Positions 518-17,360 of a stretch of DNA of 18,094 nucleotides are shown here, piece by piece. The translations under genes were made by a program, and so were the position numbers. Source of the DNA: Candidatus Bathyarchaeia archaeon (GTDB taxonomy: Archaea; Thermoproteota; Bathyarchaeia; Bathyarchaeales; Bathycorpusculaceae); assembly GCA_049512075.1 (NCBI GenBank), contig JBEKXL010000034.1, forward strand, positions 1 to 18,094, written 5' to 3'. Below the pieces are notes generated by a model, which saw only the letters and a program-made list of their open reading frames with translations, was not told the DNA's origin and did no database searches. Positions within the stretch are counted from its first letter, which is position 1. Every line of letters starts with the position of its first letter.

Positions 518-536
518 TTCTCGGCGGCCGCACCAC
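518..536 (+). repeat. tRNA-Gly 3'-end-like sequence (att-like relic)
   Basis: TTCTCGGCGGCCGCACCAC. The 15-mer CGGCGGCCGCACCAC (522-536) recurs exactly at 13631-13645 and resembles the archaeal tRNA-Gly end ...ATCCCGGCGGCCGCACCA. Confidence 0.6.
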
Positions 537-6382: not shown

Positions 6383-6410
6383 ATTGTTAGGGGAGTCTTT
6401 GCCTAACGAT
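6383..6410. promoter_or_regulatory. Dyad ATTGTTAGG-N10-CCTAACGAT between the divergent HEPN and integrase genes
   Basis: 9-bp inverted repeat with one mismatch. Related CTAACAACC boxes at 5308-5316 and 5386-5394. Confidence 0.3.
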
Positions 6411-6450
6411 TGGAGGCGTCAGGATCACGAGAGGAGTTGGACTCGTTTTG

Positions 6451-6472
6451 TGAGTGTGGAAATCATGGTGCG
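6451..6472 (-). repeat. CGCACC-N8-CACACACA family site upstream of the integrase
   Basis: Minus strand reads CGCACC ATGATTTC CACACTCA, the same spacing as the copies at 13638 and 13731. Confidence 0.5.
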
Positions 6473-6694
6473 CACACACACCAAATCAACGGCTCAAATT
6501 CGAAGTCCGCGTCAACGAAGTCCGCGCAACATTCAGGTTCCCCGAACACAACCTGCCCAAATTGCGTGAGATTGCGAACAACTGGGCTGAACGAGGCTAC
6601 ATCAACGCGAAGCACTTGCTCATGCGGATTCACCTACAGAAAGAGAAATCAGCTCGTTTGCCCATTTCAACGATCAGCCAGCAAGGGGCCTTCA

Positions 6695-7662
6695 ATGGAT
6701 CCCATTGAAAGATGGCTTTCCTCGTACGACAATGAAGATAGCCGAATCAGACGTAGGAGAGCGCTTGAACGATTCTCGAAATGTGTCGGTACGCCTCCTG
6801 AAGTGCTGCTTGAGAGAACGCGCGACCAGACACGTTCGGGGCCCCCGAAGGATGCCGAAGATGCGTTGATGAAGTTCTACACCGACATGAGAAACCGCGG
6901 TTTGGCTCGCACCAGCAGGCTGCAATGGGTGAACGTCATTCGTGGTTTCTTCTCAAAGAATGGTGTGCACTTGGCTCCACTTCCTCAACTGAAATCGAGC
7001 GGTCATCCGTCGCCGAGGATACTCATAGTATCCCTTTCAGTCAGAAAGATGTCAAGAGAATGATCAAGTTGACGACCGCCAAAACGCTTGGTTCACTTAT
7101 CGCACGCCGTAACAGAGCTGTGATCGCTTTTCTGGCGCAGACGGGACAAAGAGAAAGCGTCCTAGCGGGGATAACATGGGAAATGATACAGCGAGGCAAA
7201 AGGATCGCACTCGGTCATCGAGATCGATCCCATGCCGTTATTGAGATCGGCCCTGAATTTCCGAAGAACAAACTGCGTCAACGGTACCGATTCGTGATAG
7301 GGTCGAATGCCTTGAAACTCATGGAAAAACTACCGCGCCCGCACGTCGGGAGGGTATTCAAGACTGCCAAAGGCAAGGATAAGATGGCGGTGAGGACGAT
7401 CGCGCGTATCGTAGATGAGGCCGCAGACACCTGCGAAATTCAGTATGAGACCGAGCGGACATTTCGAGGTTGGATGTGGCATGGGGTTCATCCGCATGTA
7501 TTCCGACGATATTGGAAACGGCAGATGAAGTTAGGAGGGGTGAATGACAAGGATCTATTAGAGTACATGCTCGGTCACCGTGTGACCGCGTATGACGCAT
7601 GGACGGACGCTGACTTGCTCAGTAACTACAAGATGGCAGAGCGTAAACTTGCGGTGCTATGA
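6695..7662 (+). pseudogene. Tyrosine recombinase/integrase split by a frameshift near 6985-6995
   Basis: The frame from ATG 6695 gives an N-terminal core-binding domain (MDPIERWL...ALERF...IRGFFSKNG). The -1 frame carries catalytic TGQR, K (PKNK), HVFR, LGH and Y (AYD). Confidence 0.85.
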
Positions 7663-8823: not shown

Positions 8824-8865
8824 GACGTAAATTTCGACGCCCGCACCATGAGACCCCACACACAC
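8824..8865 (+). repeat. tRNA-3'-end-like family site
   Basis: GACGTAAATTTCGACGCCCGCACCATGAGACCCCACACACAC aligns without gaps to 13676-13707 (AAATT.CGACGC.CGCACCA.GAGACC). Confidence 0.7.
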
Positions 8866-10692: not shown

Positions 10693-10789
10693 CTGAGTGA
10701 TACTTGAGGTGCGCTTTATGAAGGAAGCCTATATGAGCACGGTTTGCGGAGCACGCGAGAAGTTCCTGAACCCTTGATTGAGCGCGATT

Positions 10790-10832
10790 GGCCGCACCAT
10801 GAATGGTGTCGTCGTTGAGGTCTCTTGGTGCG
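10790..10832. repeat. Inverted pair of CGCACCA family sites upstream of tbp
   Basis: GGCCGCACCATGA at 10790-10802 on +, and CGCACCAAGAGACC on - (10832-10819). Same arrangement as the pair at 13694-13731. Confidence 0.55.
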
Positions 10833-11055
10833 CGACGACGAGCCTATCGTCTTTCCTAGAGGTTGCAGCGCCTCTTTTGAGGCATGTCACGGTATCATGT
10901 CAACCAGACCGGAGTGTAGCTAGGATCATGTGCGGGCGCGCTTAAGAACCAAAACTGCCTAAACAGGCGCTTTCGACAGCCCGTCGTTGACAGTGATCAC
11001 ATACTGAACTCTCAAATCGCCGCTAACGCTTGTACGCTGTCCGAGGTAAGTCTCT

Positions 11056-11274
11056 GTGAGTAAGCGGAATCCGTTGACTGAGCCAAGCATCATTGTTGAT
11101 GATGTGCTTTCCATGTTGACTGGACGCCCGAGGGGCACGCTTGTAAGTTTCACTGAGATCACAAAGAACGTCCACGACTACATCAAGACAAAGGGCTTAC
11201 GGAAGAGATTCTGTCCCCATTGCAATGCACCATTGACCCCTTCAGAGCCAATGCAGGCTACGATACCCGGTTAG
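11056..11274 (+). CDS. SWIB/MDM2-like mini-protein with a C-terminal CxxC
   Basis: GAGGT RBS and GTG start. VDDVLSMLTG....LVSFTEITKNVHDYIKTKGLR resembles SWIB 'L..I.G.....RTEV.K..W.YIK...LQ'; then FCPHCN. Confidence 0.6.
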   Translation: MSKRNPLTEPSIIVDDVLSMLTGRPRGTLVSFTEITKNVHDYIKTKGLRKRFCPHCNAPLTPSEPMQATIPG

Positions 11275-11365
11275 GAATGCGCAGTATTGATGGCGGGCCT
11301 TGCTCAAACTGGGGCGAATGGCAGTCATTGCAGGACTTTGATAACTAGGACGTGTGTGGCAAAAT

Positions 11366-11710
11366 ATGGGTGCGGCTCAATCCGTCTTGAAGAAGATCCT
11401 ATCGATTCCGCCCCATAGAACGGACCGAAAACCACCACGCATGTTTTCTGGCCGAGACCCAGACCTCCTCGCAATAGCTGAGATAGAGCATCGAAGGAGG
11501 TTGGACGCGGAGCGAAGCTTGGAGAGCGTGTTCGAAAAGGTGAAACCTATACTCCAAAGGAAGCCAGAGCCAGCATATCTTGTCCACGCTTTAGAGTTGC
11601 CGGCGGATCTCAAGACGCGAATCGCGGCCATGCCCGACCCCGAGGAGAGAATGCGTGCCATTGTAGAGTACAAGTTGTCTACAAGAACGCAGTCGAGCCA
11701 TCACCAGTAG
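11366..11710 (+). CDS. Hypothetical helical protein
   Basis: 114-aa charged ORF co-oriented with its neighbours; no recognisable motif. Confidence 0.55.
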   Translation: MGAAQSVLKKILSIPPHRTDRKPPRMFSGRDPDLLAIAEIEHRRRLDAERSLESVFEKVKPILQRKPEPAYLVHALELPADLKTRIAAMPDPEERMRAIVEYKLSTRTQSSHHQ

Positions 11711-11887
11711 AGTATCGGAGGCGGTCTCTTGTCTTTGCCCGTTCGGTCTGTAGCAAGCGGATTGTCTCGAGTCTTGGCGATGGCTCTTCGAAGCCTCGGA
11801 GAATACGATCGACTGCTTCAACCGTTGAGGGAGAAAGCTTCAAGCCGATCCTCGTGTGCATCTCGTGATGATCTGCGGTGACATGAA

Positions 11888-12391
11888 GTGGTGAACTTCT
11901 GGATCTTTCCGACCACCGCGGAACGCTGGGAACTAGTCAGAACCTATAACGTCTACGCCTTCCAACATGAGGCAGACAGAGACAAGATCAAGCCAGGTGA
12001 CAAGACAATATGCTACATCGTCCGATCGGATCCGCCAGTATTCGTCGGCGCGCACGAAATCGCGAAGCCTTGGGAGGAGGCGAAGGAACCATTCTGGCCC
12101 GAGGAGAAGGCTGAGGGCAGAGTAATCCGGCCTTGGCGGTTCCAGTTGACTCCGCTGAGGCTTGGCGCCGTCGACGCTCGCAAGCTATCGAGGCAGCTCT
12201 CCTTCGTCAAGAACAAGGATTGGTGGTCAATATACTTGAGAGGCTCGCTCGCGAATTTTGGGCGGCGGATTCCGGAAAGCGATTACCGACTCATCTTCGA
12301 GGAGATGCCTAAGCCGTCTATCCCCTACCAGGTGAGACCAGCCCTCAAGCCTAAGGTGCCGTCGGTCGCCGAAGTTCCAAAGAGGAGCTGA
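11888..12391 (+). CDS. EVE (PUA-like) domain protein, C-terminally truncated
   Basis: NFWIF....RWELV...NVY, KIKPGDKTICY, FWPEE, LSFVKNK..WSIYLRG and IPESDYRLI. GGTGA RBS. Confidence 0.85.
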   Translation: MVNFWIFPTTAERWELVRTYNVYAFQHEADRDKIKPGDKTICYIVRSDPPVFVGAHEIAKPWEEAKEPFWPEEKAEGRVIRPWRFQLTPLRLGAVDARKLSRQLSFVKNKDWWSIYLRGSLANFGRRIPESDYRLIFEEMPKPSIPYQVRPALKPKVPSVAEVPKRS

Positions 12392-12559
12392 ACCCTTCCT
12401 AGTCACCACAGAGAAGTTTGAGGATGAAACCAGAAGCCTACTCGTGGAACATTCCACGAGATCAAGCCCCACATCAGAATCATCCACTGGGAGGACATCG
12501 TCGGGCTCTACAAACTTGTGAGAGAGGTCAGCGAGTTCGAGAAGAAACTAAGGCCATAG
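12384..12559 (+). pseudogene. Frameshifted C-terminal tail of an EVE-associated restriction-endonuclease-like domain
   Basis: Reads GAEPFLVTTEKFEDETRSLL, then after a shift GTFHEIKPHIRIIHWEDIVGLYKLVREVSEFEKKLRP*. Out of frame with EVE; no catalytic core visible. Confidence 0.55.
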
Positions 12560-12617
12560 CCGAAGACCCGGTCTCAGGTCTTCCGTTTCTCCCTCTCCAG
12601 CTCCTCGCGTAAGCGCT

Positions 12618-12773
12618 TCAGCGCATAGTTGAGGTTTCCGCCCCCAAGTCTTCGGCAACCATCGAGGAAACGACGGATTACGCATAGAAGACCTCCCTGA
12701 GCTTGAAATTGACAATGAGCACAAGAAGGTCACATTCAAGCTCATTCCAACACGTGTGATAGTTCGCGAGGAA
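12618..12773 (+). pseudogene. Internal fragment of a second archaeal tyrosine integrase
   Basis: SAHS*GFRPQVFGNHRGNDGLRIEDLPELEIDNEHKKVTFKLIPTRVIVREE matches the archaeal integrase segment 'AHSGLRP..LGNY.G.DGL...DLPE......F...PT...VR.E' around the catalytic Arg. Confidence 0.7.
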
Positions 12774-12791
12774 TCCCCGTCAGATAGTGCG

Positions 12792-13136
12792 TTAATTCGC
12801 AAGCCACTCGCAGACCGAAATCAATTTCTTCAGCAGCACGTCCTTCAGCCGACCTTGCGGTCGGTCATTCCAGATTGCTATGGAGTGAACGTGAACGCGG
12901 ATCACGTTAGGCATCTCGCCAAGCCAGACACGCCGTAGCCGACAAGACGAGCAGCTCAGATGAAAGCGGTGTAGATTCAGTCCACAGAGGGTTTGGCAGG
13001 GCATCCCGAACGGGCCCGCCCTCTTAGCTGCGAATTGCTTGGGAACGTGGATGCCGAGCCACCCTTTCCCGTGCTCATCGGCAAAGAACCGTGTGAGTTG
13101 TCCAAAGTCTACTGTGAGGTGATCCACAGGCTTCAA
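12792..13136 (-). CDS. Hypothetical Cys/His-containing protein
   Basis: 114 aa, AGGAG before TTG; CQTLC...H..H..CSSC. No competing gene over most of its length. Confidence 0.4.
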   Translation of the reverse strand: MKPVDHLTVDFGQLTRFFADEHGKGWLGIHVPKQFAAKRAGPFGMPCQTLCGLNLHRFHLSCSSCRLRRVWLGEMPNVIRVHVHSIAIWNDRPQGRLKDVLLKKLISVCEWLAN

Positions 13137-13380
13137 CGACTCCTAACTCTTCAGTTGATGCTGTGAGACGGAAAAGTCTTGCCTGTCAAATAGAGCAAGG
13201 TTAGAGGTTAGCCCTCGTTTTACCGTCAGATAGTGCGCTCAACCAGCAGGAGATGAACATTGACGAATAGCTGAACTTCTCAGCTCTGGAGGAACTTTCG
13301 CTGTAGTTGACAATTGAATGAAGATGTGTTCTTGGCTAACGTGCAGAATCTCGGGAGGCGCCTGGTCCCCCGTGACCTTA

Positions 13381-13421
13381 CACGTGGACTTCCACGTCCC
13401 CCAAACCACATCCACGTGGAC
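13381..13421. repeat. CACGTGGAC direct/inverted repeat cluster
   Basis: CACGTGGAC at 13381 and 13413, inverted TCCACGT at 13391, palindrome TCCACGTGGA at 13411-13420. Confidence 0.55.
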
Positions 13422-13458
13422 ACGAAAAACAGCGCTTTATGTAATATCCCCGGTCAGC

Positions 13459-13749
13459 TGGTGCGGGCGGATAAATTTGAACCCTTGGTGGTGGGTGGTG
13501 GGTAGGCCGGTGCGGGCGTCATAATTTGAACTCTCGTGAGAGACAGCAATTTGAAGTGGGAGGGTTTTCCGCGCGGTGTGTGTCGTTTCAGGTAATGTGT
13601 GTGGTTTTGAACCTGAATGGGTATAGATCCCGGCGGCCGCACCACCTTCCTCACACACATCAAACCAAAACCGACGGTTCAAATTACGACGCTCGCACCA
13701 CGAGACCTGTGTGTGTGGGTCTAGCGGTGCGAGCAACGTATTTTGAACC
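13459..13749. repeat. Cluster of five tRNA-3'-end-like sites including a 74-bp cruciform (attP-like)
   Basis: 24-mers GGTGCGRGC-N6-AWTTTGAACY-like at 13460, 13509 and 13726, inverted at 13676, plus GGGTATAGATCCCGGCGGCCGCACCA at 13619-13644. Confidence 0.8.
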
Positions 13750-13750
13750 A

Positions 13751-13903
13751 ATAGGGGAAGATGACCTACCAACGCGCACAGAGGTACTTAGGCGCATTAG
13801 GGAGAAGGAAGCGGAGCAAGCGCAAGGCCATATGGCCCCACTTCCACCGGGAGACTTCAACATTATTTATGCTGATCCACCTTGGCAGTATCTAGCTAGT
13901 TGA
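13751..13903 (+). pseudogene. Fragment of an MT-A70-family adenine methyltransferase
   Basis: EDDLPTRTEVLRRIREKE...LPPGDFNIIYADPPWQY, then a stop three codons later; DPPW at 13874-13885. Confidence 0.75.
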
Positions 13904-14134
13904 TCGCTTCGGTTTCTTGTAAGTTCGGTATGCTTCTGCAACCTTCGGATCTAATGGCTTGAGTTCTGCTATAGACCACTCCCAAATCTCTACAGTTGTG
14001 GTTCCCTCTCTTACTTTGTCTGCAATCTTATCGGCAACTTTTGTTACATGTTCCTCTTTGGCTCCAGCCTTCTTCAAAGAAGTTTTTAGCTTAGCCTTGT
14101 CAAACTCCTCCGAACGCTTCTTCACTTTAACCAA
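13892..14134 (-). CDS. Stand-alone ATP-cone domain protein 1
   Basis: GAGGTGA RBS, TTG start. VKVKKRSEEFDKAKLKTSLKKAG...VADKI...TTVEIWE...EL...DPKVAEAYRTY. Confidence 0.85.
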   Translation of the reverse strand: MVKVKKRSEEFDKAKLKTSLKKAGAKEEHVTKVADKIADKVREGTTTVEIWEWSIAELKPLDPKVAEAYRTYKKPKRSTS

Positions 14135-14183
14135 CACAATCACCTCTCTCTTCGTTATTCTCTTGAATATTCACTTAAGAATT

Positions 14184-14405
14184 TTGGCCAAACTCATCAA
14201 AAGAGGAGATACCTACAAGGCTGAAAAGCTGAAGGGCTCTATCGTATCGGCCGGAGCAAGTTGCGACGTAGCTGACAAAATCGTCAGTTCCGTCAAGATT
14301 CGCGAGGCCATGTCAACCTTAGAGTTGAGGAGACAGGTCTCAGATCAGCTAAAGAAACTCGATCCCAAGGCAGCCAAGGCCTACGACACTTACAGGTCCA
14401 AGTAG
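14184..14405 (+). CDS. Stand-alone ATP-cone domain protein 2
   Basis: TTG 14184. KLIKRGDTYKAEKLKGSIVSAG...VADKI...STLELRRQV..QL..LDPKAAKAYDTY; clearly paralogous to the divergent gene. Confidence 0.8.
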   Translation: MAKLIKRGDTYKAEKLKGSIVSAGASCDVADKIVSSVKIREAMSTLELRRQVSDQLKKLDPKAAKAYDTYRSK

Positions 14406-14573
14406 TCATCCACCTTCTCGTTCTCTTTTTCTGGCATGTTGCTCTTTGCTGAGCGGAGCTTGGAAATGCTATTGAACATTCAAGTGCAAAGCCTGAAAGA
14501 GAGAGGCGGGTAGGCTACGAATGTCTGCTCATGTCAAGTCGCACTGAACGTGCGCTCGTAAGGAATAGTGTAT

Positions 14574-14774
14574 TTATCGTTCAACGGTGAAGGCTATCTT
14601 GACGTGGGCCTTGTATCTGGCAATCTTGCCATTCTTCACATCTGCTTTGAATCCCAGCACATCTACGCCAACGATGTTCCTCACAGTTTTCGCGGCATCT
14701 CTCAAGGCCTCCTGCACTGCGTCTTCCCAGCTCTTCTCAGAGCTCCCTATCAGTTCCAGTATCTTCACAGCCAT
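14574..14774 (-). CDS. Dodecin (flavin-binding) family protein
   Basis: 66 aa: MAVKILELIGSSEKSWEDAVQEA...A.KTVRNI...NGKI..YKAHVKIAF. GGTGG RBS. Confidence 0.92.
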   Translation of the reverse strand: MAVKILELIGSSEKSWEDAVQEALRDAAKTVRNIVGVDVLGFKADVKNGKIARYKAHVKIAFTVER

Positions 14775-15395
14775 ATGACCACCCGGATGCCAATTGTTCG
14801 AAATCTGTAGATAAGTCTTAGTGAGGTCACTACAGTTTGGAACAGGCGGCCGACCGCCCGCTTCTCCCCCATAATCAGCTTCTCCCACAAGACTATTCAG
14901 TTCAGGGCAAGAGATCGACGTGAACTTGGTTACGGAATAGGAAACACGATCGCTCTCGCCCAAAAAAACGCTGCTGAATGAGGAAAGCGCCGATGTATCT
15001 TGCACCACATCAAGTAGCGTGAGGGTCCAGCGCCCAACAATGAAGAACTGAGCCTACACCAGGACAAGTCATAGGTCTGCAAGAATCTGCTTTGATTCTG
15101 AGCGGAGCTTCATACAGTTACCCGCAGAAGGCAAAGTACATGTCATCTGTAGCCATTTTCAACCGATGTCTGTTCATCAGCTTCAAATCTGGCAAAACGG
15201 ATTCAGAATTCGACTCTTTGCGGGTTGTCGTGTCGTGTAGATCCGGAAATATCGCAAGTTGTCTTCATGTCAAAGACTTTCAGGCACTGAACCTGTCATA
15301 GTAGGTGAACGATGCAACGAATACTGTCAAGGTGCAATCGAAAAGAGATAGTTGTTTATGTAGTAGCGCGCGCGACGAAATTTCGGTAAATCATT

Positions 15396-17360
15396 ATGAT
15401 ACGCGCTGGTCGAAGGATTTATTCTCCGGACTCCCCCGACGAGAGATCAAAAGTCACCTGGGGTTTGCTGCGACGCGTCTTGAACTATGCTCGCCCCTAC
15501 CGTTGGTGGATTCTCTGGATGTTGATCCTTACCTTGGTCACCACGGGCCTCTCTTTGCTGACCCCCTTGATCCTTCGTGACCTGATCGACCGGACCCTCC
15601 CGGAGCGCGATGTGTCACGCCTGATCGTGCTCATCGTTGGACTGTTGACGATCCCCCTCTTGACCGGTGCCCTCAACGTGTGGCAACGGCAGCTCAATGC
15701 CCGGGTGGGCGAAGGCGTAGTCTATGATCTGCGCACGGCGCTCTTTTCTCATCTGCAACGGATGTCTCTGAGGTTTTTCACCCATACCAAAGTTGGCGAA
15801 TTGATGAGCCGCCTTAACAACGACGTGGTTGGGGCACAGAATGCTATCAGCAACACCTTCGTCAACATCGTCACGAGTCTCATCCAGGCAGTGGTGCTGC
15901 TCTCTGTGATGTTCGCATTGGAGTGGCGGTTGACGTTGATCAGCATTGCAATCTTGCCATTATTCCTTGTTGCCGCACGCCATTTGGGGAATCGTATGCG
16001 CAAGATTGCCCGTCTGCAATTGGATCTCAATGCAAACATGAACGCGATGATGAACGAGATGCTCAATATCAGTGGCGCATTGCTGGTCAAGCTCTTTGGG
16101 CGCATTGCCCAGGAAGATACACGCTTCGAAGAACGCGCCGCACGGGTACGCGACAGCGGCGTCGCGCGGGCCGTGTCGGGTACGCTTTTCTTTGTCAGCG
16201 TGGGGTTGTTGAGCGCGATCGGCACGGCGCTGGTCTATGGCGTCGGTGGTTACTTGGTTATTCAGAGTACGCTTACCATCGGTACAATTGTTGCCTTGGG
16301 CCTATACTTGAGCAGCCTGTATGGCGCATTGCAGAGCCTGACCAACGCACCGATAGACTTTGCCACATCCTTGGTCAGTTTCGAGCGCGTCTTTGAAGTA
16401 CTGGATCTGCCGCTGGAGATCGCCTCAAAATCTGGAGCACATGTATTGCAGGACGTTCGTGGCGTGTTGGAGTTTGACGACGTCACCTTCCGGTACACGG
16501 TGGATGAGAAGGGCCTGCTCAAGGATGTGCGGCGTTTTGGCCAGATGCAAGATGTCAAAGCAGTTCTCTCTGGCGATTCGATGAAACAGCAGCGAAACTT
16601 CGACAACGTAGCTGAGGATGAGAAACAGGCCGCCCTCAGTCAGACCCGTGACGAGGTGCTTGAGCATATTTCCTTCCGAGCCGAACCGGGGAATCTGGTC
16701 GCATTGGTGGGGCCGAGTGGCGCAGGCAAGACAACACTCACCTATCTCATCCCACGTCTTTACGATCCGACTGCCGGTCGCATCTTGATAGATGGACACG
16801 ATTTGCGCGATGTGACGCTCGCCTCGCTCACAGCACAGATCGGCATGGTCACGCAAGAGACATATCTGTTTCATGACACGATCCGGATGAACTTGCGGTA
16901 TGCCAAGGCGGATGCCACACAAGACGAGATCGAAAATGCAGCCAAAGCGGCCAATATCCACGATTTTGTGATAGGTTTGCCGGACCGGTATGAGACAATT
17001 GTCGGGGAACGCGGTTATCGACTGAGTGGTGGCGAAAAGCAGCGGTTGTCACTGGCGCGGGTGATTCTGAAGAACCCACGCATTTTGGTGCTCGATGAGG
17101 CGACCAGCTCTTTAGACAGCGAATCCGAAGCCTTGATTCAGGAGGCCCTCAAGCGGGTTATGGCCAAACGTACCTCTATTGTGATCGCCCACCGTTTGAG
17201 CACCATCTTGGCCGCGGATTTGATCCTCGTGATAGATCAAGGACAGATTGTCGAACGAGGTACTCATAACGAACTCCTCAAACGAGCGGGATTGTATGCA
17301 CGGTTATATGAGACTCAGTTTCGTCAAAACTTGAGAGAAACAACCCATAGGGAAGCCTAA
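15396..17360 (+). CDS. ABC exporter, fused permease and ATP-binding domain (MsbA/MdlB-like)
   Basis: Six-TM domain with GELMSRLNNDV; Walker A GPSGAGKT, signature LSGGEKQR, Walker B LVLDEATSSLD, IAHRLST. Confidence 0.96.
   Translation: MIRAGRRIYSPDSPDERSKVTWGLLRRVLNYARPYRWWILWMLILTLVTTGLSLLTPLILRDLIDRTLPERDVSRLIVLIVGLLTIPLLTGALNVWQRQLNARVGEGVVYDLRTALFSHLQRMSLRFFTHTKVGELMSRLNNDVVGAQNAISNTFVNIVTSLIQAVVLLSVMFALEWRLTLISIAILPLFLVAARHLGNRMRKIARLQLDLNANMNAMMNEMLNISGALLVKLFGRIAQEDTRFEERAARVRDSGVARAVSGTLFFVSVGLLSAIGTALVYGVGGYLVIQSTLTIGTIVALGLYLSSLYGALQSLTNAPIDFATSLVSFERVFEVLDLPLEIASKSGAHVLQDVRGVLEFDDVTFRYTVDEKGLLKDVRRFGQMQDVKAVLSGDSMKQQRNFDNVAEDEKQAALSQTRDEVLEHISFRAEPGNLVALVGPSGAGKTTLTYLIPRLYDPTAGRILIDGHDLRDVTLASLTAQIGMVTQETYLFHDTIRMNLRYAKADATQDEIENAAKAANIHDFVIGLPDRYETIVGERGYRLSGGEKQRLSLARVILKNPRILVLDEATSSLDSESEALIQEALKRVMAKRTSIVIAHRLSTILAADLILVIDQGQIVERGTHNELLKRAGLYARLYETQFRQNLRETTHREA

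Follow-up and report, generated by a model that had tools for sequence, protein, structure and literature searches.

Among described systems, the closest to the locus analyzed here are the bacterial repetitive extragenic palindromes (REP/BIME), which are spread by RAYT transposases, and the MITEs. The locus lies in a window of 18,094 nt, the whole stretch of DNA that was analyzed, which is the entire contig C34 of the archaeal MAG G000 (2.73 Mb). Its repeats are built from a unit that we call the L-module, and from a shorter relative, the S-module. Like REP/BIME, these modules have units of ~25-45 nt, are strictly intergenic, reach tens of copies per genome and have a lineage-specific sequence. 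They also form mixed-orientation clusters that can fold into hairpins, carry no gene and show no target duplication. However, a single L-module is not palindromic or self-complementary, it combines a core resembling the 3' end of a tRNA with a CA microsatellite tail, and its host is an archaeon. In addition, the RAYT family (Y1_Tnp, PF01797; IS200-like, REP-associated Y1 transposases) was above cut-off in only one of five module-rich genomes.

MITEs, including archaeal ones, are likewise multicopy, non-coding and patchy among relatives. Two arrangements of the modules, the composite of an inverted S-module followed by an L-module (S-/L+, ~95-110 bp) and a 74-bp pair in the window, resemble them further in having inverted arms that end in TG...CA. 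In contrast to MITEs, most module copies are single arms, and direct tandem arrays are common. No target-site duplication was seen by eye at ~7 composites. An autonomous partner transposon was not found either, as 0 transposases or integrases were present among the 100 neighbouring ORFs scanned (plain ORFs, the 100 largest of the 174 collected from 80 loci with flanks).

Two further systems share parts of the layout. The stretch from T-loop to CCA is the part of a tRNA gene that integrases duplicate, and two tRNA fragments in the window (the third 25-mer of the cluster described below, and 519-536) fit such att sites. The L-modules differ from these in that they match no tRNA found, lack a T-stem, form tandem arrays and have no adjoining integrases. 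As in the cassette arrays of integrons, which have been reported in Archaea, individual genes of variable islands are set apart by modules, and two modules together can fold into an imperfect hairpin. Unlike attC sites, their orientation is not fixed relative to the genes, and the 100 neighbouring ORFs contain 0 integrases; the L-module core is presumably also different from the R' and R'' motifs of attC. No account of the repeat family was found among published abstracts, and at that level it is apparently undescribed so far.

Modules and tRNA fragments in the window

A sequence-only reading had described five 25-mers resembling tRNA ends within a short stretch of the window, together with a symmetric 74-bp palindrome. 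All five 25-mers are present where that reading placed them, at 13459-13483 (-), 13508-13532 (-), 13620-13644 (+), 13676-13700 (+) and 13725-13749 (-), and the symmetry 24-3-AGACC-(TG)5-GGTCT-3-24 at 13676-13749 is exact. They had been taken as one kind, which did not hold: four are copies of the L-module, a dispersed repeat, and copy 3 is a scrap of a tRNA 3' end. The features of the window are as follows:

519..536, plus strand: second tRNA 3'-end fragment, TCTCGGCGGCCGCACCAC; 17/18 identical to 13628-13645, a direct repeat in the same orientation
6460..6490, minus strand: S-module, (GT)nGTGCGCACCA followed by TGATTTCCACAC
8824..8865, plus strand: degenerate L-module, GACGTAAATTTCGACGCCCGCACCA followed by TGAGACC and (CA)n
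10767..10840, no single strand: degenerate module pair, GGCCGCACCA on the plus and TCGCGCACCAAGAGACC on the minus strand, between the TBP gene and the next block
13377..13455, minus strand: P-module, a dispersed unit distinct from the others and ~79 nt long; it contains a TATA-like box, TTACATAAAG, and three boxes of the CACGTG type, and borders on the tail of copy 1
13452..13483, minus strand: L-module copy 1, core GGTTCAAATTTATCCGCCCGCACCA at 13459-13483, short tail GCTGACC at 13452-13458
13484..13532, minus strand: L-module copy 2, core AGTTCAAATTATGACGCCCGCACCG at 13508-13532, tail GCCTACC and CCA-type C/A tract at 13484-13507
13620..13660, plus strand: tRNA 3'-end fragment (copy 3), not an L-module; TCCCGGCGGCCGCACCA at 13628-13644, trailer CCTTCCT and (CA)4
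13676..13707, plus strand: L-module copy 4, core at 13676-13700, tail CGAGACC at 13701-13707; left arm of the palindrome
13708..13717, no single strand: (TG)5, i.e., (CA)5 of the minus strand; canonical CA tail of copy 5, common to the head-to-head pair
13718..13749, minus strand: L-module copy 5, core at 13725-13749, tail CTAGACC at 13718-13724; right arm of the palindrome

When the window was searched with the pattern GTTCAAA-N7-GCNCGCACC, allowing up to three mismatches, four sites were found, all of them within 13459..13749 and all with 0 mismatches. In the shuffle control 0.52 sites were expected, and four or more sites occurred in 0 of 200 shuffles. Copy 3 falls outside this pattern. Copies 1 and 2 stand in tandem with a period of 49, and the 74-bp “cruciform” is two head-to-head L-modules with one common CA/TG tract. 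As single-stranded DNA, 86 nt around the palindrome fold at -25.9 kcal/mol (z = -5.8), a value that was equalled by 0 of 200 shuffles.

The degenerate copy at 8824 had been read as carrying the CA/TG tract in the opposite orientation, which hinted at inversion or strand exchange within the loop. The (CA)n after GAGACC is indeed there, and it is the normal tail orientation. No inversion is required, since (CA)n is the canonical 3' tail and the tail of copy 5, seen on the other strand, appears behind copy 4 as (TG)5, and since the same head-to-head pair recurs in other genomes. Forms of the locus with an inverted loop or inverted flanks, which that hint had suggested looking for, were absent from the contigs compared. 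Joints between opposite strands were seen in run X18 only, with short sides, and these most likely come from other repeat copies.

The sequence of the cluster is reproduced in assembled metagenome runs. A contig of run X12 covers 13380-13936 with 0 differences, and contigs of X1 and X4 cover 13273-13681 and 13678-13936, each with 0 differences. At least half of the sampled words are present in 16 of the 24 listed runs, all of them peat or wetland metagenomes and some possibly the source sample. Word depth over 13656-13778 is 10-25x that of the adjacent sequence, as is expected of a repeat. In contigs of two runs (X4 and X18), a CA-unit length variant is present at 13651, within the tract that follows copy 3.

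The tail of copy 1 runs straight into the P-module, in place of (CA)n. The same L+P junction is found in loci L067, L076, L092 and L106. Matches to the P-module are numerous in genus g91, and in at least five loci the unit is linked directly to an L- or S-module tail. Judged by its sequence alone, it may be promoter-like. Separately, the ORF 13750-13903 ends in ...NIIYADPPWQYLAS followed by a stop; it has no match in Pfam and looks like what we take to be the start of an adenine methyltransferase, cut just after the DPPW motif.

Copy 3 is what remains of a genuine tRNA 3' end, a type of remnant that integrases leave behind. Its fragment TCCCGGCGGCCGCACCA matches the end of GGTTCAAATCCCGGCGGCCGCA, a putative tRNA with a proper T-arm that is listed once each in genomes G155, G301 and G260, and through this match the identity with a resident tRNA that an att remnant should have is found in part. 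The fragment and its trailer CCTTCCT also recur in the relative G302. Neither copy 3 nor 519-536 lies within an intact tRNA. Between the direct repeats 519-536 and 13628-13645, which are 13.1 kb apart, lies a tyrosine integrase (6410-7662). This recombinase is probably frameshifted, because it is split over two overlapping frames, 6410-7063 and 6925-7662. Such a pair of direct repeats around an integrase is what integration into a tRNA gene usually leaves. The integrase is 100% identical in G111, and relatives of it are present in only 4 of the 301 genomes of the class.

MAG G000 has intron-bearing tRNAs, and C34 carries TBP and Alba genes. Within this MAG the motif is confined to small contigs with a GC of ~0.50 (C34, C37, C41, C45, C49, C56, C79 and C86), and the large contigs have a GC of ~0.47. 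Positions 11000-16000 of the window are 100% identical to a contig of G111, which belongs to the same class but to a different family (f30, genus g91). The module-bearing contigs of G000 appear to have been binned in from a g91-type organism, i.e., from another genus of Bathyarchaeia; the stated contamination of the MAG is 4.19%. The main genome of G000 has a ~200-nt repeat of its own (...TTTGGCTCCAAATAG-22 nt-CACACACAAAA..., on C1 at ~203386 and on C2, C4 and C7), with a layout like that of the L-module: an A/T box, a 22-nt GC-rich spacer, and a CA tract with an A-run.

A dispersed repeat family of peat and soil Bathyarchaeia

The four L-module copies of the window belong to a dispersed non-coding repeat family of some peat and soil Bathyarchaeia genomes. 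The L-module reads GGTTCAAATT-N5-GCYCGCACCA-N3-KACC-(CA)n. Two conserved 10-nt blocks, GGTTCAAATT and GCYCGCACCA, surround a variable pentamer and are followed by N3-KACC and a C/A microsatellite; as the blocks are themselves the search pattern, their conservation across loci is partly ascertainment. The S-module reads (GT)nGCGCACCA-N3-GACC-(CA)n.

When a single genome of each prokaryote species was scanned, GGTTCAAATT-N5-GCYCGCACCA in its exact form was found in at least 128 loci, and among the 80 loci listed nearly all are in MAGs of peat or soil Bathyarchaeia. These loci provided at least 134 distinct copies, a dispersed family that fits the short non-autonomous element which the sequence-only reading had offered as one alternative. 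Within the class, 19 of 301 sampled genomes contain the exact pattern, most of them from two families: it is present in 14/43 genomes of f30 and 3/15 of f21, in 1/10 of four further families together, and in 0/48 other genomes of f1, the family of the window's own genome, where all of these family comparisons rest on MAGs. A reversed control pattern gave 0 matches in every one of the 301 genomes.

An anchored, ungapped consensus of the copies extends to the tail agAcC-CACACACA. Among the 134 copies, the tail is (CA)n with at least three units in 87, a CCA-type tract in 6 and poly-C in 5, and the pentamer takes 65 distinct forms. Pairwise alignments of the copies show sharp unit edges at 0, +25 and ~+42. 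The family is largely outside coding sequence, with 117 of the 134 copies located outside any ORF of at least 120 aa.

The modules occur singly, as tandem repeats, preceded by an inverted S-module, or in head-to-head pairs. A census of 178 L- and 51 S-modules counted 29 tandem L+L+ pairs (gaps between 37 and 59 nt), 22 S-/L+ composites and 8 direct S-then-L pairs. Three head-to-head L pairs are present among the 134 copies (gaps of 23-25 nt): the 74-mer of the window, L038 and L122. In 36 of the 134 copies an inverted S-type arm lies within 75 nt upstream, and these would fold as long hairpins; the remaining 98 have no inverted partner. A CRISPR array was considered and rejected, as the cores differ in the pentamer and the “spacers” have the same low-complexity make-up.

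A further unit, the Q-module (GGGGATTCTGACCCC-AATTTACCGG-TACATATAAGCC), stands ~60 nt before the L-core in L041, L072, L125, L059, L110 and L009. Before it, the first three of these loci contain GGTGCGGGG, whose pairing with CCCGCACC of the L-core gives a Y-shaped fold of ~75 nt. Neither the Q-module nor the longer Q+L versions had an Rfam match.

The layout of the L-module copies the geometry of a tRNA 3' end from T-loop to CCA, with a 7-nt T-loop, 5 nt, 7 nt, A and CCA. The form GG-TTCAAAT-5-7-A-CCA is present in copies 1 and 4 of the window and in 134 family copies, and this is a likeness of sequence only. The 5-nt segments on the two sides of the T-loop do not pair with each other in any of the five window copies or in the family copies. 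The earlier claim that T-stem pairing is lost in four copies was therefore right about the loss but not about the count, as all five are unpaired. ARAGORN found 0 tRNAs in the window, and Rfam gave no tRNA match in the window nor at the longer Q+L versions. The hairpin arms were compared in the 30 of the 36 copies with an inverted arm that could be registered. In these, 44 of 120 variable positions match, compared with 36.8 ± 4.8 in shuffled arms, and this level was reached in 168 of 2000 shuffles, i.e., covariation was not detected. Nor is there a G.U bias, with 34 G.T versus 53 A.C mismatches. The sequence-only reading had preferred recognition of the DNA by a protein over folding as tRNA, and the missing T-stem and the lack of covariation in the hairpin arms favour the same view, recognition as DNA.

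Module-filled islands and the search for a mobilizing enzyme

The scanned neighbours of the modules are mostly housekeeping enzymes and transporters. The right-hand neighbour is on the minus strand in 48 cases versus 28, a mild excess in which the 3' ends of genes face the tail. In some stretches (C37, C49, G111:C5 1-7000 and G111:C90) a module is found in nearly every gene spacer, and such module-filled stretches are mosaic between relatives. The homology of G111:C5 with G302, G128 and G155 begins at 6962-7058, beside a module cluster at 6872-7009, one module of which is orthologous in G128. The ORF at 7767-8858 of C37 is 93% identical in G301, where its gene neighbourhood is another one; in both genomes modules flank it, though not the same ones. 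Loci L035 and L062 diverge exactly at +25, and several locus pairs are alike on one side of the module only, with the break at 0, +25 or the end of the tail.

Modules are often found at gene-order breaks between relatives. Several mosaic breakpoints or block edges in the window are without a module, and no clean pair of filled and empty sites was found between the relatives compared. A consistent terminal-inverted-repeat layout around genes is absent, with direct modules in C49 and inverted ones in C37. At one orthologous site a module is kept in four species, which could mean a host function; because the loci were found with the pattern itself, this conservation is partly ascertainment.

Several candidates for an enzyme or vehicle that spreads the modules were considered. 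The integrase of the window was rejected, since it is present in only 4 of 301 genomes. The reverse transcriptase family RVT_1 was found in 0 of the five module-rich genomes. A viral origin of the modules was also rejected, as only two viral contigs carry the exact pattern.

A solo Cas1 is encoded at 3251-4528 of C37 (locus L001), in a module-rich island; it matches Pfam Cas_Cas1 at E = 5.5e-50 and has a C-terminal extension. No other cas genes were seen in this 9.3-kb contig. Matches to this Cas1 at E <= 1e-20 are present in 26 of the 301 class genomes, several of which have 2-4 copies. Many copies are without their 5' part and retain the 3' end, and fragments of Cas1 are found near modules. 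When only high-identity matches, sorted by us, were counted, solo Cas1 was present in 10/19 genomes with modules versus 8/282 without. The link fails when relatedness is taken into account, because within the two module-bearing genera the corresponding numbers are 7/14 versus 2/7; in addition, modules are not regularly located at the ends of Cas1. We therefore rejected Cas1 as the partner of the modules.

A promoter reading, with TTCAAATT as TATA box, 22 nt and a start in (CA)n, was set aside as well, as the support is too weak. The geometry fits, and the unrelated repeat of the G000 main genome has the same layout, but the downstream neighbour of the modules is on the same strand in only 28 cases versus 48. 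For (CA)4 tracts of the G000 main genome, an ORF start lies within 150 nt in 29/69 versus 17/69 on the other strand.

Origin of the modules and competing explanations

Our preferred explanation, to which we assign a probability of roughly 0.55, is a lineage-specific interspersed non-coding DNA repeat of REP/BIME- or MITE-like type, which is recognized as DNA and spread by a trans-acting enzyme. The modules would be spread and reshuffled at the DNA level by a recombination or transposition activity acting in trans, which would recognize the conserved blocks. They may pile up in the spacers of variable islands and there act as, or mark, recombination hot spots. The core of the L-module may derive from a tRNA 3' end, or mimic one. 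It is from a repeat family at breakpoints that we infer both the spread by a trans-acting enzyme and the recombination hot spot.

The modules could instead serve the host. Especially the hairpin pairs flanked by T- or A-runs might be transcript-end signals, mRNA-stabilizing hairpins or bipartite protein sites that are kept by selection and not by mobility. We consider this alternative possible but rather improbable. It is consistent with the intergenic position of the modules beside housekeeping genes, with the mild excess of gene 3' ends toward the tail (48 vs 28), with the composite kept at one orthologous site in four species, with the strong fold of the window pair and with the A-runs that commonly follow the tails. 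However, the hairpin arms show neither covariation nor a G.U bias, and 98 of the 134 copies have no inverted partner within 75 nt to fold with. A host element would also have to be reconciled with the patchy distribution, which is seen even inside family f30, and with the different module content at orthologous spacers of genes that are 93% identical, and the four-species conservation is in part a product of how the loci were found.

It is doubtful that the modules are attC-like sites of gene cassettes, at which a dedicated site-specific recombinase cuts out and inserts module-bounded single genes and thereby builds the variable islands of peat Bathyarchaeia. The layout of one gene and one module in the islands is what such a system would give, and there are candidate cassettes: C37 7719-8850 matches G301:C9 in another context, and C90 5959-7284 matches G301:C18 at 94%, with an S-module ~60 nt from the left edge. 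The homology breaks at or inside the core also agree with it. Against this, no recombinase is linked to the modules, neither among the 100 neighbouring ORFs scanned (0 integrases) nor through the window integrase with its 4/301 genomes, and module orientation relative to the genes varies. Tandem arrays with a period of 47-69 nt contain no cassette, many copies stand singly between housekeeping genes, and some block edges have no module.

Equally doubtful is that the copies are leftover att sites, i.e., duplicated tRNA 3' ends from the integration of viruses or plasmids, with the cluster as a much-used integration spot. Copy 3 really is such a fragment, with its direct-repeat partner 13.1 kb away and the frameshifted tyrosine integrase between them. 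The tRNA-like geometry of the L-module, and a few L-modules just after tRNA genes (L025 and L060), would also fit. The attP-like role that had been proposed for the cluster does not carry over to the L-type copies, since the tRNA lists and pattern searches yielded no tRNA that ends in this way and 0 of the 100 neighbouring ORFs encode an integrase or transposase. None of the 44 ARAGORN tRNA calls in G000 ends in CGCCCGCACCA, and matches of the CGCCCGCACCA type in the five module-rich genomes are modules again, with ARAGORN calling one unrelated tRNA in the six loci checked. In addition, integration at a site without a T-stem would not restore a working tRNA, the tandem arrays are too tight for an integrated element, and the pattern is on only two viral contigs. 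For the L-type copies, this origin is less likely.

Also less likely for the L-type copies, and very improbable overall, is that they were derived from RNA, either as DNA copies of a tRNA-like RNA 3' fragment with post-transcriptional C/A tails or as small RNA genes. The tails are almost purely C and A, in the three types counted above, and the longer version in L041, L072 and L125 has a matching 5' strand (GGTGCGGG) and two hairpins. However, the N3-K that follows CCA contains G and T, the 5' edge of the unit is sharp and not ragged, RVT_1 is missing from all five module-rich genomes, and there is neither an Rfam match nor covariation.

Finally, a conserved coding repeat (VRAxxFEP) or an assembly artefact, both of which the sequence-only reading had named beforehand as fatal to it, can be dismissed with near certainty: ORFs of 111 aa and 125 aa overlap the stretch, but the copies lie intergenically and vary in frame and strand, the 125-aa ORF matches no Pfam family, and independent contigs (X12, X1 and X4) give the same sequence without a difference.

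Bathyarchaeia are abundant and uncultured, and knowledge of their genome evolution is scant. A repeat that occupies the spacers of variable islands, and that is found at gene-order breaks, provides a handle on this genome plasticity. In practice, the module family also causes MAGs to be fragmented and mis-binned. If the modules did bound gene cassettes, they would be a functional parallel to integrons with unrelated sites and an unrelated enzyme, and a previously unseen archaeal system. Under the preferred explanation of a DNA repeat spread in trans, an enzyme that recognizes the tRNA-end-like core would, if found, represent a new archaeal mobilization or recombination system.
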